Shown: positions 1,478 to 61,409 of the stretch, piece by piece
How the letters are laid out: every line of letters starts with the position of its first letter
How positions within the stretch are numbered: the first letter of the stretch is position 1
DNA from: a virus
Taxonomy: Duplodnaviria; Caudoviricetes
IMG/VR virus record: IMGVR_UViG_3300021400_000128
Location: 72,916-136,915 of that record
Strand: one strand, 5' to 3'
DNA length: 64,000 bases
Translations under genes and position numbers: made by a program
The notes under the pieces: generated by a model
Seen by the model: only the letters and a program-made list of their open reading frames with translations
Told to the model about the DNA's origin: nothing
Databases searched by the model: none

Positions 1478-1578
1478 GATTGCCTCCGTGATTCAAAATT
1501 TATTATTTAATCAACTTACATCTATTATTATATGCGTTAATATATATTTGTCAATGTCTTTATTTATTTTTATTACAT
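1478..1578 (-). promoter_or_regulatory. Early promoter cassette (TTGACA-16-TATAAT, leader TAAGTTGA, RBS GAATCACGGAGG)
   Basis: -35 at 1549-1554 and -10 at 1527-1532; module recurs about 10 times in the window. Confidence 0.85.
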
Positions 1579-3767: not shown

Positions 3768-4059
3768 TTTTGACCTTCCTTTACAATTTGCTGGCCTCGT
3801 TTTATTGCTTTGACACTCCCCATGCCTAAAGGCAGGGGATTCTTAAGAAGGTTGCTAAGATAGCCTTATTCTTAAAGGGCTTGCCAATAGCCCGCTATCC
3901 AGTCTTTCAAAATTGAAATTCTGTTTACATTTCCGTTACCGCCTTATATCCCCATAGTTGAAGCGAGGGGTTTTACGGCTGTTTTCTGATAAAATCACCG
4001 TACCAGTTTGTTTCGAATTGAAAATCAAAATTCTTCAGCATTTGCTGTCGAAGTGTCAT
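3764..4059 (-). pseudogene. 38-aa ORF interrupted by the mini-element
   Basis: Removing 3810-3988 restores MTLRQQMLKNFDFQFETNWYGDFIAIKRGQQIVKEGQK*. Confidence 0.65.
3810..3988 (-). mobile_element. Non-autonomous IS605-type mini-element with a third omegaRNA-like scaffold
   Basis: Same right-end hairpin; left end CCCCATAGTTGAAGCGAGGGG; TAM-like TTTAT at 3989-3993. Confidence 0.85.
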
Positions 4060-4239: not shown

Positions 4240-4376
4240 AGGTAACCTCCGTGATTCAAAATTTATTATTTAATCAACTTACATTTATTATTATATGCGT
4301 TATTATATATTTGTCAATGTCTTCTTTTATTTTTATTACAATTAATCGTAAAGAAAAAACCGGGATATCCGGTTGT
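4240..4376 (-). promoter_or_regulatory. Terminator + early promoter cassette
   Basis: AACCGGGATATCCGGTT hairpin with T-tract on minus, then TTGACA (4312-4317)-16-TATAAT. Confidence 0.85.
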
Positions 4377-12934: not shown

Positions 12935-13149
12935 GTCATTCTCCTTATATTTTTACTTCAGATTATTTGATTACGATATCTTGTACATGGATGGGAATAA
13001 TATTATTCCTTTTAAAAAATCTCAACGCTTGCATAATCGGCGACATCAATATCGCCGTCAGGATATTTCACCACAACACAAGGATCGCCGTTTTCGATAA
13101 TGTATTCCAGGATTGAAACTTTTTCACCGTCAAGATAAGTGCTCATTTG

Positions 13150-13485
13150 TTGCCTCCGTTATTTTTAGTCTTGCTTTTTTCAACTTACATTACTTATTAT
13201 ACGCGCTTTTATTTAATTGTCAATGTATTTAATCATTTTTATTACATTTCAACTTATTTTTTAACCGGGAATTTCACCCGGTTATTATTACATATGACGA
13301 ATTATGGTATCAATCACCAGATACAGAGCATACAAGGCAACCAGTGAAGCAATCGCACCGATAAATTCTGAAATAATCGTAAAAAACATTGTGACCTCCG
13401 TTGTTTTTTATTCAATCAACTTACATTATTTATTATATTCAGCATTATATATTTGTCAATGTTTATGTTTATTTTCATTACATTT
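13150..13485 (-). promoter_or_regulatory. Two tandem early promoter cassettes with an intervening terminator
   Basis: TTGACA at 13218-13223 and 13454-13459, each 16 nt from TATAAT; hairpin at 13263-13283. Confidence 0.75.
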
Positions 13486-18628: not shown

Positions 18629-20923
18629 TTATTTAGCAAACTCCCGAATCTGGTTCAGCCCTATGTATTTCTTTCCACCACTAACCAAAACTGGAACGCT
18701 CTGGATATCGTATTTTTTGGCAAACTCAGTTGTAGCTTCATCCTTCACGACAATCTTTTGATAATCGATCCCAGCTTGCTTCAGTACATTCTCAGCCATG
18801 TTGCAATTTGGGCATGTCTCTGTTGAGAAAAGCATATTAACATCCTTCTTTTCCTTGTGAAAGTTAGGATCATATTCTTTTCGCTCTTTGAATTCCTGCA
18901 CCTTCCCATCATTCCAATTGCGCAGCGGACGATAATATCCCGTGATTCTGCTGTACACTTCGGTTTCTTTTCCACATTGTGGACATTGAGCAACTTCACC
19001 TGTCAAATATCCATGGTCAGGACAAATTGAATACGTCGGGGATAGTGTGTAATACGGGAGATGATAATTTTCCGCTATTTTCCTTACAAGCTGCGCCGCT
19101 GCTTTCCACCCGCTCAATCTCTCGCCGAGAAATACATGGAATACGGTTCCGGACGTGTAAAGCGTTTGCAGTTTATCCTGAATATCCAGTGCTTCGAACA
19201 CATCTTCAGTATAACCGACAGGAAGGTGAGATGAGTTTGTATAATAAGGTGTTCCGTCTGACGCTGTTATTATTTCCGGCCATCGTTCTTTATCATGCTT
19301 CGCAAGGCGATATGATGTTGATTCTGCTGGTGTCGCTTCAAGATTGAATAAATTTCCGTATTTTTCCTGATAATCTGAAAGACGTTCCCGCATATGATTT
19401 AGAACATTTTCTGCAAACTTCTGCGTTTCAGGATTTGTCAGATCTTTTTTCAACCACTTCGCATTCAGTCCCGCTTCATTCATACCAACCAAACCAATTG
19501 TAGAAAAATGATTGTTAAACGTTCCGAGATAGCGTTTTGCGTAAGGATAGAACCCTGCATCAAGATATTTTGTGAGGACTTTTCTCTTAATATCTAAAGA
19601 ACGGGCAGCAATATCCATCATTTTATCTAATCGCTTATAAAAGTCAGTTTCATCTTTCGCAAGAAAAGCGATGCGGGGAAGGTTGATGGTAACAACGCCG
19701 ATCGATCCAGTACTTTCTCCGGAGCCAAAGAATCCACCTGATTTTTTACGCAGTTCACGAAGATCAAGGCGCAACCGACAACACATCGACCTCACGTCTG
19801 TTGGTTCCATATCGCTGTTGATGTAATTAGAAAAATAAGGTGTTCCGTACTTGGCGGCCATTTCAAAAAGCAGACGATTGTTTTCAGACTCCGACCAATC
19901 AAAATCTTTCGTGATAGAGTACGTCGGAATTGGGTACTGTAATCCACGACCATTTGCATCACCTTCAATCATCACTTCGATGAATGCTTTGTTTACCATA
20001 TCAGCTTCTTTTTGGCAGTCGCCATATGTGAAATCCATCGGTTCCCCTCCGACCAAAGCAGGCTGGTCTTTCAGGTCAGTAGGAATTCTCCAGTCCAGCG
20101 TGATGTTAGTAAATGGAGCCTGTGAACCCCATCGGCTTGGCGTGTTTACCCCGAAGACAAAAGACTGAATGCAGTTTTTTACATCTTCATATTTCAGGTG
20201 ATCCGCTTTTACAAAAGGAGCTAAATATGTATCAAAAGAGGAAAATGCCTGTGCACCAGCCCATTCGTTTTGCATTATTCCAATAAAATTCACCATCTGA
20301 TTACATAGAGAGGATAGATGCCTCGCCGGAGCAGATGTGATTTTACCAGGAACACCGCCAAGTCCTTCCTGGATCAACTGTTTCAGCGACCATCCGGCAC
20401 AGTATGGAGCTAACATGGCAAGGTCGTGAATGTGAATATCAGCATTTCGGTGTGCATCACCGATTTCCTGATCGTAAATTTCACTCAGCCAGTAATTTGC
20501 CGTAATAGCTCCACTGTTGGAAAGAATCAGTCCGCCAATAGAATAAGTTATGGTCGAATTTTCTTTAACTCTCCAATCAGAACTATCAACATAACTGTTG
20601 ACCAATTCTTTGTAGTCAAGGAAAGTGCTTTTTAGATTTCGGATATTTTCTCGCTGTTTGCGATAAAGGATATAGGATTTCGCAACATCTGAATATCCGG
20701 CTTGACTAAGAATTGTTTCCACACTATCCTGAATATCTTCAACGTTAATCGTATTATTCTTCACCTTTGATTGGAAATCTGCCGTAACCTGTATTGCAAG
20801 CATTTCTAAAACATCTGGAAATACAGTTTTTTCTTCCGCAAGAAAGGCTTTTTCCATAGCGTGAATAACTTTTTGAATATCGAACTTAGCATGACTGCCA
20901 TTTCTCTTTATCACATCACACAT
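18629..20923 (-). CDS. nrdD: Anaerobic (class III) ribonucleoside-triphosphate reductase with ATP cone and C-terminal glutaredoxin-like domain
   Basis: VIKRNG ATP cone; IHIHDL; SMCCRL; YSRITGYYRP glycyl-radical motif; CPNC...IQSVP. Confidence 0.95.
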   Translation of the reverse strand: MCDVIKRNGSHAKFDIQKVIHAMEKAFLAEEKTVFPDVLEMLAIQVTADFQSKVKNNTINVEDIQDSVETILSQAGYSDVAKSYILYRKQRENIRNLKSTFLDYKELVNSYVDSSDWRVKENSTITYSIGGLILSNSGAITANYWLSEIYDQEIGDAHRNADIHIHDLAMLAPYCAGWSLKQLIQEGLGGVPGKITSAPARHLSSLCNQMVNFIGIMQNEWAGAQAFSSFDTYLAPFVKADHLKYEDVKNCIQSFVFGVNTPSRWGSQAPFTNITLDWRIPTDLKDQPALVGGEPMDFTYGDCQKEADMVNKAFIEVMIEGDANGRGLQYPIPTYSITKDFDWSESENNRLLFEMAAKYGTPYFSNYINSDMEPTDVRSMCCRLRLDLRELRKKSGGFFGSGESTGSIGVVTINLPRIAFLAKDETDFYKRLDKMMDIAARSLDIKRKVLTKYLDAGFYPYAKRYLGTFNNHFSTIGLVGMNEAGLNAKWLKKDLTNPETQKFAENVLNHMRERLSDYQEKYGNLFNLEATPAESTSYRLAKHDKERWPEIITASDGTPYYTNSSHLPVGYTEDVFEALDIQDKLQTLYTSGTVFHVFLGERLSGWKAAAQLVRKIAENYHLPYYTLSPTYSICPDHGYLTGEVAQCPQCGKETEVYSRITGYYRPLRNWNDGKVQEFKERKEYDPNFHKEKKDVNMLFSTETCPNCNMAENVLKQAGIDYQKIVVKDEATTEFAKKYDIQSVPVLVSGGKKYIGLNQIREFAK

Positions 20924-24386: not shown

Positions 24387-24502
24387 TTGACACTCCCCAT
24401 GCCTAAAGGCAGGGGATTCTTGCTTCACCCACCACAGCATGATTTTCATCACGTCTTACACGATGTCCACAAGCGTTGATTCCCGTGTGTCCCACGGTAT
24501 TT
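24387..24502 (-). ncRNA. TnpB omegaRNA (reRNA) scaffold overlapping the tnpB 3' end
   Basis: ACCGTGGGACACACGGG hairpin ... GTGAAGCAAGAATCCCC ... GTGTCAA. Confidence 0.8.
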
Positions 24503-25599
24503 TCTTTTAAAATTTCCAATCCTTTATTCAGAATGTTGATCGCTGCATTAGCATCACGATTATGATGAGTTCCACATTTTGGACAGTCCCATTCTCGGAT
24601 CGATAAATCCTTTACTTCAGGATTTTTATATCCGCATTGGTTACATGTCTGACTGCTTTCATAGAAGCGTGGTATTTTAACTAATATTCCTTTCCTGTCA
24701 CTCATCTTGTATTGCAGCATTCTGAAAAATTCACTCCAACTTACATCTGCGATTGATCGTGCTAATTTATGATTTTTCATCATTCCTTTGATGTTCAGAT
24801 CTTCAACACATACAACTTGATTCTCGTTTGCAAGTGTTGTTGTCACTTTATGAAGGAAATCTGTTCTGATATTAGTCACTTTTTCGTAAGCAATCGCAAC
24901 TTTTATTCTCTGCTTTTCTCTGTTGTTGCTCCCCTTTACTTTTTTTGACATTCTTCTTTGTGTTCTTGCAAGTTTTTTTGCGTATTTTTTATATGTTTTC
25001 GGATTCGGGATACTATTTTCATTACTGTCAACAAGAAAATCTTTGATCCCAACATCTATTCCAATAATGCCTCCGTTATTTGTCAATTCAGGTTCATCTG
25101 TCTCAACACAAAGCGAAACATAATACTTTCCACTCATCGATTTACTTATTGTTGCATTCAGGATTCGTCCATCGAAGTGTTTCAGTCCTTTATATCTGAC
25201 ATAACCGATTTTAGGTAGCTTGATTGTATTTGCGACAAGCCTAATTCCGTTACTCTGATTTCTTGTTCTGAAAGATTGTTTTCTTTTCTTTGAATGGAAC
25301 TTTGGGAATCCGGCATTCCTTTTGAAGAAATTTTGATAAGCCTTATCTAAATCCTTCAAAGTCTCTTGATATGCCATGCTGTCGGTCAGGTTTAGCCATT
25401 CTTGAGTTCCGTCTTTTTTTAGCTCCGTCAACAACCGCATCGTTTCATACATTGACACTGATTTCTTTTCTTCTTTGTATGACTTAATCCGAAGATCAAG
25501 AAAATGATTATATACATAGCGAACATTTCCAAATGTCTGCTCAATTTGGCTCTTTTGTTCTCTCGTTGGATATAATCTCGCCTTGTATCCTTTGTTCAT
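24403..25599 (-). CDS. tnpB: RNA-guided endonuclease TnpB
   Basis: YKARLYP HTH; RuvC GIDVG / VEDL / RDANAA; CNQC...CPKC. Confidence 0.95.
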   Translation of the reverse strand: MNKGYKARLYPTREQKSQIEQTFGNVRYVYNHFLDLRIKSYKEEKKSVSMYETMRLLTELKKDGTQEWLNLTDSMAYQETLKDLDKAYQNFFKRNAGFPKFHSKKRKQSFRTRNQSNGIRLVANTIKLPKIGYVRYKGLKHFDGRILNATISKSMSGKYYVSLCVETDEPELTNNGGIIGIDVGIKDFLVDSNENSIPNPKTYKKYAKKLARTQRRMSKKVKGSNNREKQRIKVAIAYEKVTNIRTDFLHKVTTTLANENQVVCVEDLNIKGMMKNHKLARSIADVSWSEFFRMLQYKMSDRKGILVKIPRFYESSQTCNQCGYKNPEVKDLSIREWDCPKCGTHHNRDANAAINILNKGLEILKENTVGHTGINACGHRVRRDENHAVVGEARIPCL

Positions 25600-25724
25600 A
25601 CAACACTCACTCGAATAATATTAATATTACCGTCTTTCATCCCCATAGCTAAAGCAAGGGGCTTTTCGGCGATTTTTGGTAATCGCCCAACTGTCCGCTC
25701 AGTTCCATTTGAAAACGTGTCATT

Positions 25725-25852
25725 GCCAACCTCCGTTCAAAATTCATTCAACTTACATTTATTATTATATTTATTATTATATATTTGTCAATGCGTTTAC
25801 TTATTTTTATTACATTGATTCACAAAAAGAAAACCGGATCAACTCCGGCTTT
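25725..25852 (-). promoter_or_regulatory. Terminator + early promoter cassette
   Basis: CCGGA..TCCGG hairpin; TTGACA at 25786-25791; TAAATGTAAGTTGA leader. Confidence 0.8.
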
Positions 25853-28610: not shown

Positions 28611-29867
28611 TTAGCTTCGTGGGAGGAACGCCGAATTTCTTTTTTCAACAATGTAACTATTATTAGGTTGTATCAGTTTTAATTTCTTGTAACTGACTGA
28701 ACCATTATTTACCTTTGTTCCGTCCAAAGAACGGATGTCAAAATATCCACTATCTCGACGTCCAAATACAATATATGGCTTATCTTGATACACAACCATA
28801 TCGAACAACCGAAATCCCCTTACTTCGTGTGGAGCTTGATTTCTCTTTTTTGCCCCACCTTTCAAAAAATTACATTTGTGTATCTGCCTGTTGTGACAGC
28901 GAACTTTTCTGTAGAAAAAGACTTCACCGTTACTCTTCGCTGTAGGATTCCCGCTGATACACCGTGCATCGATGTAATGATCCTTTGGTAACCCATTCTC
29001 AATACGAGTATGTTTTGTGATATACCCATAAGTAAGATTCACGTTAAGATATGTCTGCTTCAGTTTTCCGTAAAATGCCCATCGCATGATTCCCATAAAA
29101 GCAGCATCTTTGAAACTCATACCGCGTTTAATTCTTTTCGGGAGATCAACTGTTCCGTTATGATATCCTTTATGACAGGTCTCACACAGCGTAATAAGAT
29201 TGTTCGGAGCATCTCCACCGGTTTTCCTTGATTCAATATGATGCACATTCAGAATCTTATCTTTTGACTTTCCTTTACAGCATTGACACTTATGACCATC
29301 CCTGTATAAAACATATTCACGCACATTCCAAAATCCTAACTGTTCACCCTGCTGATACTCTGCACCACTGATTTCAGGATTCTTGATTTTCTGAATATCA
29401 AATGAAGCAACCTCCACCATTATTTTTGAAACGGGTAGTATATTATGGATTCTCCGAATAAATGAAAGATGCGTGTCAACCTTCTGCTGTACTGAAGGTG
29501 CTAACCAGCCGTCTTTCCGCTTGCGGTTATCAAATCTTGCTTTGCGATAACGTAGTTTACGGTTCCGGCGAGAGCTTCTTTGTTCTCTCCGGGATGAAAG
29601 CAATTTCACGATATCGTTTCTTACTTCAACATTTGCTTCAAATAAGACTTTTTCTTTTGTTGTAGTAGAGATACCAATCACCTTTGATCCGGCATCGACG
29701 CCTAAAGTAACCTCCTGCGTATAATTTGTTGTTTCATACGCTAACTGTATTGTGAACGGACATTTCTTGATTACCTTTGCCTTATGCGACTTTAGGAGAA
29801 TACGCACTTTTGCATGGTTCTCTGTGGGCATTAAGGGCTGTCCGTTTGCGCTTATAACATAAACCAT
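28611..29867 (-). CDS. iscB: RNA-guided endonuclease IscB
   Basis: PLMP domain; LGVDAGS; Arg-rich bridge helix; VEVASFD; CQCC..VHHI..NLITLCETCH (HNH); HYIDA. Confidence 0.95.
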   Translation of the reverse strand: MVYVISANGQPLMPTENHAKVRILLKSHKAKVIKKCPFTIQLAYETTNYTQEVTLGVDAGSKVIGISTTTKEKVLFEANVEVRNDIVKLLSSRREQRSSRRNRKLRYRKARFDNRKRKDGWLAPSVQQKVDTHLSFIRRIHNILPVSKIMVEVASFDIQKIKNPEISGAEYQQGEQLGFWNVREYVLYRDGHKCQCCKGKSKDKILNVHHIESRKTGGDAPNNLITLCETCHKGYHNGTVDLPKRIKRGMSFKDAAFMGIMRWAFYGKLKQTYLNVNLTYGYITKHTRIENGLPKDHYIDARCISGNPTAKSNGEVFFYRKVRCHNRQIHKCNFLKGGAKKRNQAPHEVRGFRLFDMVVYQDKPYIVFGRRDSGYFDIRSLDGTKVNNGSVSYKKLKLIQPNNSYIVEKRNSAFLPRS

Positions 29868-29879
29868 ATTATCGTTTTC

Positions 29880-30159
29880 TCCTTTCCTAACTCTTTTCGA
29901 GTTAATAACTCACTCCGAAGAGCGGTAAGCATACCTTCGCCAATGTTATCCCAAGGTTTTGTATGTCTGCATCACTGTTCCTTCCTCACAGAACTGTTTA
30001 AACACAGACCGTAGTGTTCGGAATTAGGTATTACGTCCCGAAGTACCTATATATTCTCAGGTAACGTAGTGCTCATGGCACTTAGGCTATTCAATGTGAA
30101 TTGCTTTTCGGTTTTTGCCATCAGCAATCCCCGAAGCTTTAGCTTCGTGGGTCATTGAA
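29880..30159 (-). ncRNA. IscB omegaRNA (HEARO-type)
   Basis: TTCAA...TTGAATAGCCTAAG...ACTACGTT...TTTAAACAGTTCTG...AACATTGGCGAAGG upstream of iscB. Confidence 0.88.
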
Positions 30160-30234
30160 GATCCACTGTTCGTGACCGTTGGCGCAAGGTTCGCTGTTGA
30201 TGAATTCGATACCGATTTTTTTGAAGAAGTTCAT

Positions 30235-30372
30235 GAGTTGCCTCCGTTATTCAAATTGTTTGTTTAATCAACTTACATTATTTATTATATACGCTTTTAT
30301 ATATTTGTCAATGTATTTAATCATTTTTATTACATTGAATTATAAAGAAAAAACCGGGATATCCGGTTCTTC
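30235..30372 (-). promoter_or_regulatory. Terminator + early promoter cassette
   Basis: AACCGGGATATCCGGTT; TTGACA at 30306-30311; GAATAACGGAGG RBS. Confidence 0.85.
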
Positions 30373-33554: not shown

Positions 33555-33714
33555 TGTTGCCTCCGTTATTCAAAATTCATCATTCAACTTACATTTATTA
33601 TTATACGAGTTTTTATATATTTGTCAATGTTTTTAATTATTTTTATTACATCTTTTTATTTATCGAAGTTATGACATTCCAGTTGAAAAATTAACCGGAT
33701 TATCTCCGGTTAAT
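33555..33714 (-). promoter_or_regulatory. Terminator + early promoter cassette
   Basis: TTAACCGGA..TCCGGTTAA hairpin; TTGACA at 33622-33627. Confidence 0.8.
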
Positions 33715-34830: not shown

Positions 34831-35969
34831 AATTCACCTTATGCTGTTTTGCTGTTTGCTTTGATACTCAACAGCTCTTTTGCCCATTGCTCGCATTCTT
34901 TGCGGACACCATCGCGGTTCAGACCTTTTTCCCAGGAACAACCATCTGCGGAGTAGATGTTGTAGGTCTTCATCTGCTTGTTGGTCAGCGGATTCCACCA
35001 TTTTTCTTCAATTACGGTGATACCGTATTTTTCTTCAAGACCTTTGAATCCGTACATAATATCCTCCTTAAAACATCTCACAATCTGCAAACGAATCGTC
35101 TTGATCCGGTTCTGTATCTTGTTCGTCTTCTTCCGGTATCTCATCGAGCATATCCCAAATATCGCTTATCCTATTGAAGTAATAGTCATAGCTGATATCA
35201 CCGTTCATATATTCGTGTTTCAGTTCCGTCAATTCATCAAACCATTTCTGCTTATTGTCCATTATTTCAGCTCCAAGAAGTCAAAATCTTTTTTCTCAAC
35301 AAGACCAAGGATCTCCAAGGCGTTTTTCATTCCAAGGTAATATGACAGTTCACCGTCAAAATCGCTGAATGTACCGCCCTTTTCTTTGATGTCTCTGACA
35401 CGCTTCAAACTTTCATCTGCCAGGAAAAGGATTCTTTCCAGTGATTCAGTGTTGACCGTTGTGTTTCCGGTTGTTTCCATTTCCAGCTCCTTTCCTTTAC
35501 GCGTTCAGTCCGACACTGTAAGCGTTATTCTGAGCGAAGCGCAGACCCAGGTTATAAACTTTTCGCTGTGCACCGATTGTGCAGGGCATTTCTGACGTAA
35601 TCTGACGATCACCGTCATTGATGATGAAGTAATTATCGAAAACATCCGCACTGATGGATTTTTCGCCATCGGTAATCAGGAAATTCGCCATATAGCGATC
35701 AAAATTCTTGTTCGCAATCATCTGAGCATCGGTCATGCTTTTCAGAATTTCCTTTGCGGTTTTGAGCATATCTTCAAATGTCATCGTGTGCCTCCTCAAA
35801 ATAACTATCGCTGATTCAAAATGGTTGTTCGTTTTACCATCCGAGCCAGTCTTCAAATGCTCCGGCTGCTTCAATTTCTGCGTATTTCGCTTCGATGTAT
35901 TTTTCATATTCGTTATCAAATTCGTTATTCATTGTTGCCTCCGTGATTCAAATTAGCTCAAAAATGGTT

Positions 35970-35997
35970 CCCGGTGTTTTGCCCCACCGGGTAGGGC
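35970..35997 (-). other. H-type RNA pseudoknot
   Basis: GCCCT-A-CCCGGT-GGGGC-AAAAC-ACCGGG. Confidence 0.6.
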
Positions 35998-36031
35998 TGT
36001 CATTCTCAAATGAGCTTTCGCTCCGTGTGAA

Positions 36032-38612: not shown

Positions 38613-38750
38613 GATTGCCTCCGTGATTCAAACTCAATTTCAACTTACATTTATTATTATATGCGTTATTTAATAATTGTCAATGTGTATCATTATTTTT
38701 ATTACATTTAATAATAATTAAAAAAGCCCGGTAAAAAAGTCGGGCTTTTC
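38613..38750 (-). promoter_or_regulatory. Terminator + early promoter cassette
   Basis: AAAAGCCCG..CGGGCTTTT hairpin; TTGACA at 38678-38683. Confidence 0.8.
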
Positions 38751-44451: not shown

Positions 44452-46494
44452 TCATTCCATGTGAAGTATATTTATTATTTTATTGATTGGCATTTTAAAT
44501 AGCCAATCTCGTATATCAAACTCATCATCTTTTCGTTTCAAGAACAAATATGCACGGAGCGGATGGTTCTTTACTGCTTCAGCGAAATCCTTTTGAGTGG
44601 CATACTCATTTTCGCAAAATGTTTTCCACTCATTTTCTGCATAATCGCAAAATGTTTGTATTTTATTCAGCACTGCATCGACTTTTTCTTTTTGTTCCGG
44701 GGCATATGCAAGGAAATCATCCAATTGATCGCTGCGAATCAGTTTGAGGATACGCTTTTCGGTCACAGCTCCGTTCATTCTGATATGAGCAGCAAGCAGA
44801 TATTCCGGAGACTTGACTTTAATCCGGTTTCCGAATAAGTCATTGACCACAAAGCCCTCCTCATCTTTACTCATCATCTGCGCAGCAGTTACCACGTCAT
44901 GCAAATTGCTGATATGATACACTTTTGGATATTGGATCCTTGCTTCCGGTACAAATTCAGGGGTATCAAAATATTCGGTTCCTGTTGTGGTTTCCTTTCG
45001 TGAAAGATAATAAATTCCGTCCTGATACGGAATGACGACCTGTGTCTCCGGTGATGTCAGTTCAAACATGTACGTCAGGTTCTTATCGAGCGTGCTGCCG
45101 AATGTCTGAATATCCGTTCCTAATGCTCTGACAAAAATATCGCCGAAGAATAATTCATCATCCTCACCGACCGGGGCTTCAAAGGCATCGATCGTCCCGT
45201 TTGTAGACAGATGCCATTGTCCGTTGTCATACCAGACTTTACACAACGATCCATCGACTTTTTCAGTCACTCTTGCGGTTTTCCAGTCAATATCAGCAGC
45301 ATACTCTTCACCATAATTGAAAAACTTATCAAAAGGACGGCAGACATAAATATATTTACCGTTATCATTTTTCAGGATACAGCCGCGAGCTTCCCGTGAT
45401 GCCACATAGCTCATATCTGTTGCGAATTGGTTGTACTTTAAAAGAATATAATGATATTTTTCATTAATTGTTTCACGAATTGTCAATGAGAATGGTGGAT
45501 TCTTTAGCCGTTCACGCCAATCAGCAAATGTATTCATCAGATCAATTAAGTGCATTGATTTGTATTTCGTCATTGATATCTGTCCTGTTTCATCTGCTTT
45601 TCTGAGCATCACGAGTTTATCATATAGTTCCGCTCCGTAATACTCAATAAAATCCACCTTTTTAAAAAAATCTCTGTACACAGCATCGTGATAATGGATT
45701 AACCTTGCAATATTCTTTGTGCGCTCTGATATGTCATAGCCATGAACCTTATCGCATAAATACAGATATGCGCTCACGTTTTCATGCTGATTAAAATGGG
45801 CTCCTTTTTCGTCTTCTGACCGTGTATAGTTTTTTCCAAGGTCATGATACCAGGCAGCTTCTTTCACATCGTCAGGTGCATTCATTGCATCCGCAGCTTT
45901 GAATACTAAATCCGTATGATGACCGACATTTTCAACGTGCCATTTTCCGGTCTGATCGATACCGTATAATTTTGGATACAGCTCATCAAAAATCTGCGTG
46001 TCAGTATGATTGTATGGATTATAAAAGACGATTTTGTTAAAACCTTCATGAAGTTCCGGCATAAAGAACGCTGACATTTGACGATATATCACATCCTGTG
46101 GTGTTTGCCTTTCACGGCTTCGCTGATTCTCAATCGCCATATTTGGCGGAGCCAGTATCGCATAACATTCCTTGTTAATTACAACGCCACGAACACGGCA
46201 CTGATTCAGTACGTTCCTTCTTGCTTTCCGGGATAGGTTTGTAGCATCCAGGATCACATCTTTTCCTTCTGTCAGAAATCCTTTCACTCTGCGATACGCT
46301 TCCTGAAATACTTTTTCCGGGTCTCTCTGGATACTTTCGTCACCAAACATTTCTTCACGGATTGAATCGGAGGATACGACACGAACATCGGATTTAGCAT
46401 GGACATCAAGATATTGATTGAGTAATGTATGTTTTACAAAGGTGGATTTTCCGCTGCCGGATATTCCAACCATAATAATCAATTTTGGCATCAC
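44452..46494 (-). CDS. Polynucleotide kinase - HD phosphoesterase - T4 Rnl1-like RNA ligase fusion
   Basis: GISGSGKST, DATNL; H...HT...HDLGK..H; KFFN, EKVDGS, EGFVV, KVKSPEY. Confidence 0.88.
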   Translation of the reverse strand: MMPKLIIMVGISGSGKSTFVKHTLLNQYLDVHAKSDVRVVSSDSIREEMFGDESIQRDPEKVFQEAYRRVKGFLTEGKDVILDATNLSRKARRNVLNQCRVRGVVINKECYAILAPPNMAIENQRSRERQTPQDVIYRQMSAFFMPELHEGFNKIVFYNPYNHTDTQIFDELYPKLYGIDQTGKWHVENVGHHTDLVFKAADAMNAPDDVKEAAWYHDLGKNYTRSEDEKGAHFNQHENVSAYLYLCDKVHGYDISERTKNIARLIHYHDAVYRDFFKKVDFIEYYGAELYDKLVMLRKADETGQISMTKYKSMHLIDLMNTFADWRERLKNPPFSLTIRETINEKYHYILLKYNQFATDMSYVASREARGCILKNDNGKYIYVCRPFDKFFNYGEEYAADIDWKTARVTEKVDGSLCKVWYDNGQWHLSTNGTIDAFEAPVGEDDELFFGDIFVRALGTDIQTFGSTLDKNLTYMFELTSPETQVVIPYQDGIYYLSRKETTTGTEYFDTPEFVPEARIQYPKVYHISNLHDVVTAAQMMSKDEEGFVVNDLFGNRIKVKSPEYLLAAHIRMNGAVTEKRILKLIRSDQLDDFLAYAPEQKEKVDAVLNKIQTFCDYAENEWKTFCENEYATQKDFAEAVKNHPLRAYLFLKRKDDEFDIRDWLFKMPINKIINILHME

Positions 46495-52248: not shown

Positions 52249-53379
52249 CTATTGTGCATATAATAACAACCCTTGTTTTCTGATATTGATAGCAGCATTC
52301 AAGTCTCTGTTGTGAACTGTTCCGCACTCAGGACATATCCAACTCCTATCACCTAATTTCAATTCAGCATTTACATATCCGCACTGATTACACGTTTTTG
52401 AAGAAGGAAACCACTTGTCTATCGCGATGAGCTTCTTTCCACGCTCAATCAGTTTATAGGACAGAAATGTTCTAAATTGTCCGAAACCGTTATCAGTCGT
52501 TGCTTTGGCAAGGTGTAAACCCTGTGACATTGCCTTATAGTCAATATCTTCCACGGCAATAATATCATATTGATCCGCAAGTTTGGTGCTCAACTTGTGC
52601 TGCCAATCTTGCCGACAATTGCGTACTTTTTCAAACGCACGAGCAACCTTGATTCTCTGCTTTTCCCAATTTGAGCTTCCTTTTTGTTTTCTGGATAATC
52701 TCCGTTGTTCACGTGCCAATTTTCGTTCCGCTTCACGGTAGAAATGGGGCATATCTGCTTTATTTCCTTCGCTATCCACATAAAAATGTGGGGAACTGTA
52801 ATCAAGCCCGATTGAATTTTCAGTATTCAGTTCACGTTCAGGAATATCAAGCTCATACTCAAACCCGATGGATACAAAATACTTTCCACTCGGTTCCTGG
52901 GACACTGTAGCATTCAGGATTCTTGCTCCTTCCGGTAATTTTCGGCACAGCTTTGTTTTCACTATTCCTAATTTTGGAAGGCGCACATTCCCGTTCTCAA
53001 TCCGCGTAACATTGTCGCATCCGACCGTTTGATAGGATTTTTGATTATCCTTCTTGCGCTTGAATTTCGGGAATCCAGGAGTACCACCCTTTTTTACGTT
53101 CCTGAAGAAATTCTGATACGCAGTATTCAGGTTACGGAGCGCACATTGCAAGGCGTTTTTATCCGGTTCTTTCAGCCATTCGTATTCATTCTTCAAGTCA
53201 GTAAGCATCTTGTTCTGCTGAAAAAATGATCTGCTTTCACCGTTTTCTTTATAAGCGGTGATTCTATCAAAAAGGAAGTGATTATAAACAAAGCGAACAC
53301 ATCCGAAAGTCTTCTGAATCAGCTCTTCTTGCTGCTTATTTGGATAAATTCTGTATTTGTATGCTTTATTTGAAATCAT
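52249..53379 (-). CDS. tnpB: RNA-guided endonuclease TnpB (CRISPR-adjacent), RuvC D-E-D intact
   Basis: KAYKYRIYP; IGLDYS / VEDI / RDLNAA; CNQC...CPEC. Confidence 0.95.
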   Translation of the reverse strand: MISNKAYKYRIYPNKQQEELIQKTFGCVRFVYNHFLFDRITAYKENGESRSFFQQNKMLTDLKNEYEWLKEPDKNALQCALRNLNTAYQNFFRNVKKGGTPGFPKFKRKKDNQKSYQTVGCDNVTRIENGNVRLPKLGIVKTKLCRKLPEGARILNATVSQEPSGKYFVSIGFEYELDIPERELNTENSIGLDYSSPHFYVDSEGNKADMPHFYREAERKLAREQRRLSRKQKGSSNWEKQRIKVARAFEKVRNCRQDWQHKLSTKLADQYDIIAVEDIDYKAMSQGLHLAKATTDNGFGQFRTFLSYKLIERGKKLIAIDKWFPSSKTCNQCGYVNAELKLGDRSWICPECGTVHNRDLNAAINIRKQGLLLYAQ

Positions 53380-59752: not shown

Positions 59753-59878
59753 AACACCCTCCGTTATTCAATTCAACTTACATTATTATTATACATGTTA
59801 TTTATTATTTGTCAATGCAATTATTTATTTTTATTGCGTTTGATTAAAAAAATAAAACCGCCGAAATTGGCGGATTTA
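59753..59878 (-). promoter_or_regulatory. Terminator + early promoter cassette
   Basis: CCGCC..GGCGG hairpin; TTGACA at 59810-59815; GAATAACGGAGG RBS. Confidence 0.8.
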
Positions 59879-59894
59879 CTGATATTGGAGTGAG

Positions 59895-60365
59895 TTATTC
59901 GTACAAGGATTCAGCCCATGTTCGTACAATCTCGCTAATACTCTTGTTTTGCTCTCTTGCTTTTCTCTTCAGGTTGAGCCGTGCTTTTGGTGATAACGTT
60001 AATGACGTTACCTTTTGTTTATCGTCTTTATCTTCCATAAAAATTTCCTCCAGTTTTTCGGGACAATTGGAATGCACCCAATTCCTGGCGGAGTTGTAAT
60101 TTGATTGCAGCCAGATCTCATATCTGAATCCACCAACCTCTTTTCCATCTTCTATCTTGTTATAAGGTGAGTTTTTTCCACCTTGACCAAGTACAAAATA
60201 TTCTCCGCTCTTCTTTTTATATAAGGTCTCTGTCCAATCATCATCCGGGTTTTCACCGTATTTTTCTCCAAATGTCTTTTTTACCGTATATAATGGTGTT
60301 GCTTTTTCGATGTCATAAAATTTATTATCAAGCTTCCTTGCAACAACTTTTTCTATCATCTTCAA
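59895..60365 (-). CDS. YD(T)-motif protein with C-terminal RHH
   Basis: KFYDIEKA...ETLYKKKSGEYF..G.GG...TSLTLS...LKRKA....SISEIV. Confidence 0.7.
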   Translation of the reverse strand: MKMIEKVVARKLDNKFYDIEKATPLYTVKKTFGEKYGENPDDDWTETLYKKKSGEYFVLGQGGKNSPYNKIEDGKEVGGFRYEIWLQSNYNSARNWVHSNCPEKLEEIFMEDKDDKQKVTSLTLSPKARLNLKRKAREQNKSISEIVRTWAESLYE

Positions 60366-60378
60366 ACTCCTTGTTGTC

Positions 60379-60407
60379 TTGACAAAAATCTATCTCTGCC
60401 ATAAAAT
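60379..60407 (+). promoter_or_regulatory. Consensus sigma70 promoter of a putative sRNA
   Basis: TTGACA-17-TAAAAT. Confidence 0.85.
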
Positions 60408-60412
60408 ATTGA

Positions 60413-60520
60413 TTACATTTGAAATATGTCATTCTCAAATGTAGCCGAGGTCTCCGTTATTCATTCAACTTACATTTAACAAGCTTCGGCTGAAACAGCT
60501 CTGGACTCAGGGCTGTTTTA
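60413..60520 (+). ncRNA. Putative trans-acting antisense sRNA against early-gene leaders
   Basis: Three hairpins, the last a terminator; loops ATGTCATTCTC and CTCCGTTATTCATTCAACTTACATTTA complementary to repeated leaders/RBSs. Confidence 0.7.
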
Positions 60521-61114
60521 TTTTACAATACTAATCAGACGTTTCACTGCGTCCTTCAATTCATTCTGATCGTCAGAAATATTATTGTTGCAATATGTTT
60601 GGAAATCATCATAGTTTCCGATTTTTTCAGAAAATCCGTTTTTCTTATACCAACTTACAAATCTTTTTGCAACTCGAGCCTCACGATCTTTGATGATTTG
60701 TCTGCTCCGATCAAAATATTCCGCTATCTCTTCAAACGTTTTCAGATTCCATCTCATTGCTGAAATCGTTACATTGTTATAATTCAAAAATACTTTTTTT
60801 TGTAAATTCGCAATAATGGTTTCCGGTTTTGTTATATCTTCGTCTGCATTGATAACATAACCGTTTTCTTTCCACTTCGTCAGTAATTCTACAAGTTTCT
60901 CAAGCTTTACCGGGCCGAACAAGTTCTGATCTGTTAAATCAGCATCATCTAACTTCCGCAGATGGTCTGTTGTTGTAATTCCGTAACTGTTTAAAAGCGC
61001 AACAAGACGTTTTTGTTTAATATCGTCTTGTTCTATTATTTCTGACAAATATACACATGGTGCTTCTTGTAGTATGTTTTTTACTCTGGTTGTTTCGATC
61101 CGTTTTCGTCCCAT
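60518..61114 (-). CDS. RNAP alpha-CTD-like + sigma region-4-like HTH protein
   Basis: KRLVALLNSYGITT...L.....L....FG...LE; KTFEEIAEYFDRSRQII...E. Confidence 0.55.
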   Translation of the reverse strand: MGRKRIETTRVKNILQEAPCVYLSEIIEQDDIKQKRLVALLNSYGITTTDHLRKLDDADLTDQNLFGPVKLEKLVELLTKWKENGYVINADEDITKPETIIANLQKKVFLNYNNVTISAMRWNLKTFEEIAEYFDRSRQIIKDREARVAKRFVSWYKKNGFSEKIGNYDDFQTYCNNNISDDQNELKDAVKRLISIVK

Positions 61115-61409
61115 TAATATCCTCCTTCCCTTTCATTTTTTTAAATTATATTCATGTTTTATATATTTGTCAATGTAACTTATTATTCTTATGCTTATAT
61201 ATTTGTCAGTGCTGTATATTATTTTTGTACTTAGTATTTATCATCCTCAATGATTTTTCCGCCCTCTAACTTATATTTCGGAGCTTTTTGTATATTGATA
61301 AACTTCACATTTCCTTGCTCAACAGAAATCGAAATCACCCCCCATTTTCTTGTTGATTCACGTATTTCGGCAAGACAGCCTATTACATATTCCATTGCTT
61401 CTTGGTCGC

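Follow-up and report, generated by a model that had tools for sequence, protein, structure and literature searches.

Does a 158-bp gap between two genes of an uncultured 137-kb phage from ruminant guts encode a regulatory RNA, and, if so, which mRNAs would this RNA address? The stretch of DNA analysed here (the window) is the final 64 kb of a 136,915-bp IMG/VR phage record, the ends of which repeat over 107 bp. Almost all genes of the record are carried by the minus strand. The locus in question (60379-60524, plus strand) corresponds to the gap between the minus-strand genes 60518-61114 and 59895-60359. The original prediction, made from the sequence of the window, had placed here a trans-acting antisense RNA against the leaders of early operons.

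A predicted transcription unit on the plus strand

The following features were assigned to the locus:

60379-60407, plus strand: sRNA promoter (-35 TTGACA at 60379-60384, 17-nt spacer, -10 TAAAAT at 60402-60407)
60412-60524, plus strand: predicted sRNA of ~110 nt (start inferred from the -10, 3' end set at the U-tract; fold)
60414-60443, plus strand: hairpin 1 (arms 60414-60422 and 60435-60443, 12-nt loop 60423-60434; fold)
60444-60490, plus strand: hairpin 2 (closing stem of 7-8 bp, 60444-60450 with 60484-60490, around a 33-nt loop, 60451-60483)
60491-60524, plus strand: intrinsic terminator (60491-60503 pairs with 60508-60520; U-tract up to 60524; fold and comparison)

A consensus promoter driving a non-coding plus-strand RNA of ~105 nt that ends in a terminator had been predicted, and this was borne out by the near-consensus promoter, the fold, the U-tract and the retention of the unit in 11 relatives (see below). 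The promoter, of the host type (sigma-A/sigma-70), scored 11/12. The terminator stem comprises 11-13 bp at 60491-60520, and its U-tract shares bases with the stop codon of the 198-aa gene, which converges on it. This terminator was not listed by a simple terminator scan; its assignment is based on the fold and the comparative data. Folding of the region gave -37.4 kcal/mol (z -6.9) for the plus strand versus -31.2 kcal/mol (z -4.2) for the minus strand, and the three hairpins described earlier form in the computed fold.

The possibility that the locus encodes a small peptide was considered and rejected. Both a 17-aa plus-strand ORF and a 36-aa gene-strand ORF lack a Shine-Dalgarno (SD) sequence, and the differences between relatives are all nonsynonymous; the former is missing in half of the family and the latter is not conserved across it. 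Rfam searches (gathering threshold over the whole window; E<=10 over 60300-60600) revealed no match to the sRNA, including to C4 (RF01695). With a promoter, no conserved ORF, a covarying structure, an intrinsic terminator and retention in relatives, the locus has the properties of an independent bacterial-type sRNA gene. Thus, it very probably represents a genuine, conserved phage sRNA gene that is transcribed independently from the plus strand.

Promoter, helices and terminator in related phages

At the DNA level, the GenBank phage collection contained no match to the phage, and IMG/VR scans with the two flanking proteins yielded no close relative. Relatives were found via the 154-aa protein encoded at 59895-60359, homologues of which (45-99% identity) were present in ruminant gut assemblies, sheep-rumen and ruminant-GI ones among them. 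Together with metagenome and MAG contigs, the contigs concerned yielded 11 distinct versions of the intergenic unit from ruminant gut metagenomes, always located between a gene of 190-209 aa and the 154-aa homologue, with neighbor-protein identity down to 58%. Pattern scans of IMG/VR returned no further sRNA homologues, only chance coding matches or unrelated phages of ~40 kb that share the box at position +1 of the early leaders (see the last section).

The -35 hexamer TTGACA is invariant in 11/11 relatives, at a fixed position on the antisense strand and with a spacer of 16-17 nt. The -10 reads TAnnnT in nine of the 11 versions, TATCCT in one and TATAAA in one. Promoter scores were 10-12/12 on the sRNA strand versus 6-9/12 on the gene strand, the latter without positional conservation. 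Every relative has a closing stem around a large loop, and a terminator U-tract only on the sRNA strand.

In an alignment of eight sequences (A4), 91% of the cells were paired versus 82.7% in shuffles (0/500) and 31-50% in slid controls. Both sides had changed in 11 pairs, versus 5.2 in shuffles (0/500), and compensatory pairs were found in all three helices: at three pairs of hairpin 1; at three pairs of the hairpin 2 stem, for which there are at least five unrelated stem sequences across the relatives; and in the terminator. A separate count for the terminator stem gave compensatory changes at 9/12 pairs and eight U-G cells in the core. The ratio of G-U to A-C cells in the conserved helices was 24:2. 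Since G-U cells would be mismatches on the opposite strand, the selected structure is that of the plus-strand RNA. Only this conserved-helix count separated the strands; G-U counts in whole-molecule minimum free energy folds did not (25 versus 29), and whole-molecule folding energy favored the sRNA strand in only 8/11 relatives.

The loop of hairpin 2 was compared between the window and its closest relative, L007. No difference was found over a 35-nt core, whereas the remainder of the unit differs at ~16% of positions and third-codon identity in the flanking genes is 0.71-0.78. The stem differences between the two are mostly compensatory or wobble-compatible. Judged by this comparison, loop 2 is under strong constraint. 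In all ten versions that were folded, the anti-leader loop was predicted to be unpaired, with a P(unpaired) of 0.55-0.81 versus 0.27-0.44 for the rest of the RNA; the value for the window is 0.77. The 5' edge of the loop reads CUCCG or CCUCCG in 9/11 relatives, while L015/L016 have UUCC and L034/L035 a CUUCG variant.

Complementarity of loop 2 to early-operon leaders

Genome-wide, 13 operons open with one and the same leader cassette, and nine of these are inside the window. The cassette consists of an upstream AT-rich box, perfect -35 and -10 elements, a box at ~+1, a variable spacer, a ribosome-binding site (RBS) block and ATG. Two blocks in loop 2 are complementary to this leader, with the spacer removed, so that the copy at 60452-60478 has both leader blocks fused:

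60452-60463, plus strand: anti-RBS block (complement of the RBS block in the early leaders)
60465-60478, plus strand: anti-5'-end block (complement of the initial ~14 nt of the early mRNAs)

The leader blocks are strongly enriched. There are 10 minus-strand copies of the 14-nt 5' block (<=2 mismatches) versus 1.2 expected, a number reached in 0/100 shuffles, and 10 copies of the 12-nt RBS block (<=1 mismatch) versus 0.5 expected. Nine of the 10 copies of the 5' block are directly behind a consensus promoter; the sole copy without promoter and ORF is that at 60452-60478. The predicted target leaders in the window, all assigned by block search and energy scan, are:

59753-59786, minus strand: target leader (-35.2 kcal/mol), cassette promoter at 59788-59815
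38613-38653, minus strand: target leader
33555-33597, minus strand: target leader, best trans match (-38.6 kcal/mol)
30235-30281, minus strand: target leader
25724-25761, minus strand: target leader
13390-13429, minus strand: target leader
13147-13193, minus strand: target leader
4240-4287, minus strand: target leader
1478-1524, minus strand: target leader

The prediction that the loop of hairpin 2 is complementary to both the 5' block and the RBS of these leaders was checked genome-wide by an energy scan of the whole gene strand with the loop. After the cis site, 13/13 cassette leaders were among the top 17 of 13,687 windows, in agreement with the prediction. Their energies ranged from -26.5 to -38.6 kcal/mol versus a window mean of -10.2 (sd 3.7), and the bipartite complementarity spans 12-27 nt. 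Two sites that had been included among the leaders have to be set apart: those at 35939 and 36276 carry the RBS block only and are located behind other leaders.

All 13 cassettes also contain an AT-rich box with ATGTAAT 12-27 nt upstream of the -35 (for example, at 59827-59842, minus strand), which may be a regulator site or a UP-type site. A leader motif borne by the host was considered as well and rejected: a -10 followed by the +1 box was not enriched in 401 Clostridia genomes (19 matches versus 13 in the reversed control).

Co-variation of loop and leaders

The match between loop and leader was also analyzed across phages. The leaders of each relative's own cassettes were gathered where enough flanking DNA was available. 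In the matrix of own versus foreign leaders, the diagonal was best or near-best in every row. For six distinct phages, the true assignment of sRNAs to leaders was the best of 720 permutations. Thus, the covariation of sRNA loops with leaders, which had been proposed as a check, was found: own leaders fit best. When the sRNA of one phage was scanned against the genome of another, no cassette was among the top matches.

A 148-kb relative, a contig binned with a Flexilinea MAG, illustrates the correspondence. Its +1 box is changed, its sRNA loop carries the matching complement, and the box upstream of the -35 is retained; the ATGTAAT core persists in its cassettes (G003:C7) despite the different +1 box. 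The loop of this relative is U-rich and its energies are noisy, with only four cassettes among the top 16 matches.

The homology between loop and cassettes has sharp boundaries. In the window, L012, L017 and G003:C7, it begins 2-7 nt after the -10 and stops at the SD. Because the homology in these well-aligned cases runs from ~+1 to the SD, the loop copies only the transcribed leader and not the promoter. For L011 and L019, in which gapped local alignment over-extended into the AT-rich promoter, the boundaries were taken from contiguous matches. Co-variation of loop and leader is a prediction of selection on RNA-RNA pairing, unlike what is expected of a decaying DNA cassette. Alternatively, the cassettes and the leader copy could have been kept in step by gene conversion.

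Hairpin 1 as a possible second seed

The loop of hairpin 1 had been proposed to pair with a second RBS/start motif. Its complement is indeed present as exact matches at 4058, 12933 and 32731, versus 0.14 expected (0/100 shuffles), and all three are in an RBS-spacer-ATG context. An additional match near 35999 is 15 nt long instead of the 14 nt reported:

35993-36007, minus strand: match to the complement of hairpin 1 (3' arm and loop), upstream of the RBS-block copy 35939-35950

This site is a possible extra target of the sRNA. It belongs to an intergenic region (35932-36031, minus strand) in which the 15-nt match is followed by a terminator-like hairpin and then by the RBS block, an arrangement that represents a second kind of leader sharing pieces with the sRNA locus.

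Hairpin 1 is an optional 5' hairpin, found in about half of the family. L012, L014, L019 and L020 lack it, and L011 has a short form. It occurs in the window and in L007, L034/35, L017 and L015/16; of these, all but L015/16, in which it is altered, retain the loop core. Thus, while the three exact sites agree with the proposal, the absence of the hairpin from about half of the family weakens it, and hairpin 1 is a possible second seed. A gene-strand promoter within hairpin 1 (ATGACA-16/18-TATTTT or TATTGT, 9/12) was rejected as a general explanation for the conserved loop, since it exists in the closest clade only. There, the bases of the loop core could supply the -35 of this weak promoter, which may contribute to loop conservation.

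The surrounding operon

The genes around the sRNA locus were assigned as follows:

61145-61173, minus strand: operon promoter (TTGACA-17-TATAAT), with a leader (61115-61144) that lacks the sRNA target box
60518-61114, minus strand: 198-aa gene, convergent with the sRNA and first gene of the surrounding operon (ORF; counterpart of 190-209 aa in relatives)
59895-60359, minus strand: gene of the 154-aa protein (ATG at 60359), divergent from the sRNA promoter, with a C-terminal ribbon-helix-helix (RHH)-like domain

The product of the 198-aa gene has no match in Pfam or PHROGs. The C-terminus of the 154-aa product consists of a beta-strand and two helices. Sub-threshold matches to RHH_1 and NikA-like domains were obtained for 12 and 9 of 20 family members (Pfam, PHROGs), in addition to a weak Ntox33 match. 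The AlphaFold model of the protein had a mean pLDDT of 82, and a fold search against the PDB gave no match at E<=0.001.

No gene-strand promoter for the RHH gene is conserved among the relatives. This gene must therefore be transcribed through the sRNA gene from the promoter at 61145-61173, and the sRNA is thus also perfectly antisense to the operon mRNA. The original prediction, which considered action in trans only, missed this full complementarity to the mRNA running from the 198-aa gene to the RHH gene. From this layout, a cis-antisense role of the sRNA on its own operon is also likely. The sRNA starts ~40 nt upstream of the SD of the RHH gene and runs away from it, so that SD and start codon are not covered; within the 198-aa gene, its overlap is limited to the stop codon. 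In 6/7 phages, the first leader of the operon lacks the sRNA target box, and for this reason the module seems to be exempt from its own trans-silencing.

A distant homologue of the RHH product (47% identity) was found in a different element with ParB and DUF932 neighbors (L018:1771-1886, minus strand). Upstream of it are a divergent TTGACA-16-TAGAAT promoter, ~80 nt and a U-tract terminator. With this layout, the pairing of protein and sRNA may be older than the phage family.

Predicted function and alternatives

Silencing in trans of the early leader class is the best explanation for the main function of the sRNA, and we regard it as fairly likely. The stem of hairpin 2 would hold the ~33-nt loop open and single-stranded, and the loop would pair in trans with the 5' end and the RBS of ~13 dispersed early mRNAs. 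This pairing would keep the 30S subunit from binding and would probably make the duplexes accessible to decay of the RNase III type, so that the early gene set would be turned down as a class. The sRNA would probably also control the surrounding operon in cis via the read-through mRNA, with the module escaping its own trans-silencing through the missing target box in the first leader. Such a switch may serve early shut-off in lytic growth, or immunity against related superinfecting phages. The early-to-late timing and the lysogeny or carrier-state role of the original prediction are conjectural. Counted against this explanation is the logic of timing: the sRNA and its targets have promoters of one class.

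This shared promoter class, by which the sRNA would be made simultaneously with the early mRNAs, fits a positive role, as does the extension of the complementarity to the extreme 5' end of the mRNAs. The sRNA would then act as an activator or stabilizer, shielding the 5' ends from decay or reorganizing the leaders. Yet the loop also covers the SD and, by established sRNA mechanisms, would block initiation (PMC4152353), which makes a protective role highly improbable. A purely cis-acting RNA that collides with the read-through mRNA or forms a duplex of ~105 bp with it, as sar does in arc-ant of P22, would have a layout that is classic among phage antisense RNAs (PMC12197685). The sRNA is fully complementary to the sole plausible mRNA of the downstream gene, given that no gene-strand promoter is conserved, and the two are linked in every relative, perhaps even in the distant L018. 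The likeness of the loop to the leaders would then be due to ancestry or gene conversion. This leaves unexplained why the loop is an exact copy of the transcribed leader up to the SD, is single-stranded, stays invariant while the stems drift, and tracks the phage's own leaders; moreover, neither the SD nor the start codon of the downstream gene is overlapped. We therefore consider action in cis only to be unlikely.

An element that functions on the gene strand or as DNA, with the plus-strand transcript being secondary, could serve as a decoy RNA that captures a protein binding to the leaders, or the boxes could be operators for the RHH protein. The gene of this putative DNA-binding protein adjoins the locus, the short box is present two to three times in the locus, arranged as an inverted repeat (hairpin 1) or duplicated in tandem (L012, L019, L020), and a related box is found upstream of the -35 in all cassettes. 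Against such an element, which we judge decidedly unlikely, speak the 24:2 ratio that puts the selected structure on the plus-strand RNA, the conservation of promoter and U-tract on the same strand, and the arms of hairpin 1, which show compensatory changes (a G-U pair among them) in place of the fixed sequence of a protein site. In addition, the upstream box is retained where the +1 box and the loop have changed in concert. Finally, the locus might be a functionless, decayed promoter cassette of the minus strand, the null hypothesis named at the outset. Its block is oriented like the cassettes and is located 0.7 kb from a very similar one. But there is no trace of a cassette promoter or start codon, the homology is confined to the stretch from +1 to the SD, the covarying unit is kept in 11 relatives with neighbor-protein identity down to 58%, and the loop has stayed unchanged despite a divergence of ~25% at neutral sites. 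A decayed cassette is thus scarcely credible.

Comparison with known antisense RNAs

To our knowledge, the phage antisense RNAs OOP, sar, c4, P4 CI and STnc6030 act on one gene or one operon each. In the immI region of P22, sar RNA is encoded beside the RHH proteins Arc and Mnt. Like sar, the sRNA described here is antisense, has its own promoter and terminator inside an operon, and adjoins an RHH gene; this is an analogy, not homology. Both sar (P22 immI, arc-ant) and lambda OOP are short antisense RNAs with their own promoter and terminator that act in cis (PMC12197685). They overlap the RBS or the 3' end of the regulated gene. Our sRNA shares with them the position inside an operon and on its opposite strand, whereas it leaves the RBS, start and coding 3' end of the presumably regulated neighbor uncovered, and its leader mimic would be aimed at distant operons.

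The RNA had been called C4-like. As described in PMC8546580 (citing Citron & Schuster 1992), c4 of P1/P7 (immI; RF01695) is excised from the leader of its own target operon, icd-ant, which is essentially the only one. The likeness extends to a phage sRNA with short exposed blocks (here 60452-60463 and 60465-60478) complementary to sites at or upstream of the RBS, and to target-specific co-evolution; c4 represses translation, which is predicted here. Membership in the C4 family did not hold. Apart from the missing Rfam match, our sRNA is not processed from the sense-strand leader of a repressed operon: it is flanked by a promoter and a terminator of its own, is oriented antisense to the operon around it, and matches ~13 dispersed operons.

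The sRNAs RsaE, RNAIII, FsrA and LhrC of Firmicutes use C-rich, loop-exposed motifs for anti-SD pairing, usually without Hfq (PMC4152353). The unpaired, pyrimidine-rich motif of loop 2 is likewise complementary to the GGAG-type SD of several mRNAs. Those sRNAs are host-encoded, have seeds of 4-8 nt and address metabolic or virulence genes; in contrast, the present RNA is of phage origin and has a bipartite match of 12-27 nt to a phage regulon. Homology to the RsaE/LhrC class was not detected in Rfam.

Possible significance

Early-gene shut-off is usually credited to proteins, namely RNA polymerase modifiers, RegB-type nucleases and repressors. Surveying the literature on phage sRNAs, including a 2025 review (PMC12197685), we found no RNA aimed at a leader common to many early operons. 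The picture that emerges is one in which a family of large ruminant-gut phages tag their early operons with a leader "address" that one master antisense RNA reads, silencing a dozen or more dispersed operons. The address and its reader could double as a phage-specific immunity code against superinfecting relatives, and the RNA would be coupled to an RHH regulator in a self-exempt module. Taken as a whole, this picture is tentative, and our own leaning is slightly against it. If true, regulon-wide control through one co-evolving RNA and a leader common to its targets would give a phage a different, very economical means to time or lock its early program. It would also explain why early leaders are uniform within a phage and differ between relatives, and such address-and-reader pairs would be a ready set of orthogonal multigene RNA switches for Gram-positive-type expression systems.

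Further features of the phage and its early operons

Several observations were made on genes behind the cassettes and elsewhere in the genome. The first gene behind the cassette at 13459 is a strongly hydrophobic ORF of 33 aa (13288-13389, minus strand). It resembles small membrane peptides such as type I toxins or holins and would count among the predicted sRNA targets. Directly behind another early cassette is a HEARO/IsrB-type element (28611-30311, minus strand) with a HEARO RNA (Rfam, 29925-30159, 130.7 bits) and a 418-aa RRXRR+HNH ORF (28611-29867). With just 31 aa, the first ORF after this cassette looks like what an insertion of the element into the first gene would leave. Two TnpB (OrfB_IS605/Cas12f-like) ORFs were found at 24403-25791 and 52249-53379 (both minus strand); the former is right behind the early cassette at 25791, the first ORF of which has 24 aa.

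A tyrosine recombinase (Phage_integrase, 94 bits) is encoded outside the window and opposite to most genes (G000:C1:22077-22568, plus strand). Because of this gene, a temperate or plasmid-like lifestyle is possible; the phage may be temperate or plasmid-like, or the recombinase may serve dimer resolution. NrdD, an anaerobic ribonucleotide reductase fused to a glutaredoxin domain (18629-20923, minus strand), points to a strictly anaerobic host. A 680-aa protein that combines a kinase with a T4-type RNA ligase (44452-46494, minus strand) may be an RNA-repair enzyme.

In the unrelated IMG/VR phages of ~40 kb mentioned above (L004:1305-1326, L005, L025/L026/L029/L031), several of which derive from a single metagenome, a host-type promoter precedes the +1 box TGTAAGTTGA and a GGAGG site. 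Pairing of the sRNA with the early mRNA of these phages could in principle occur.
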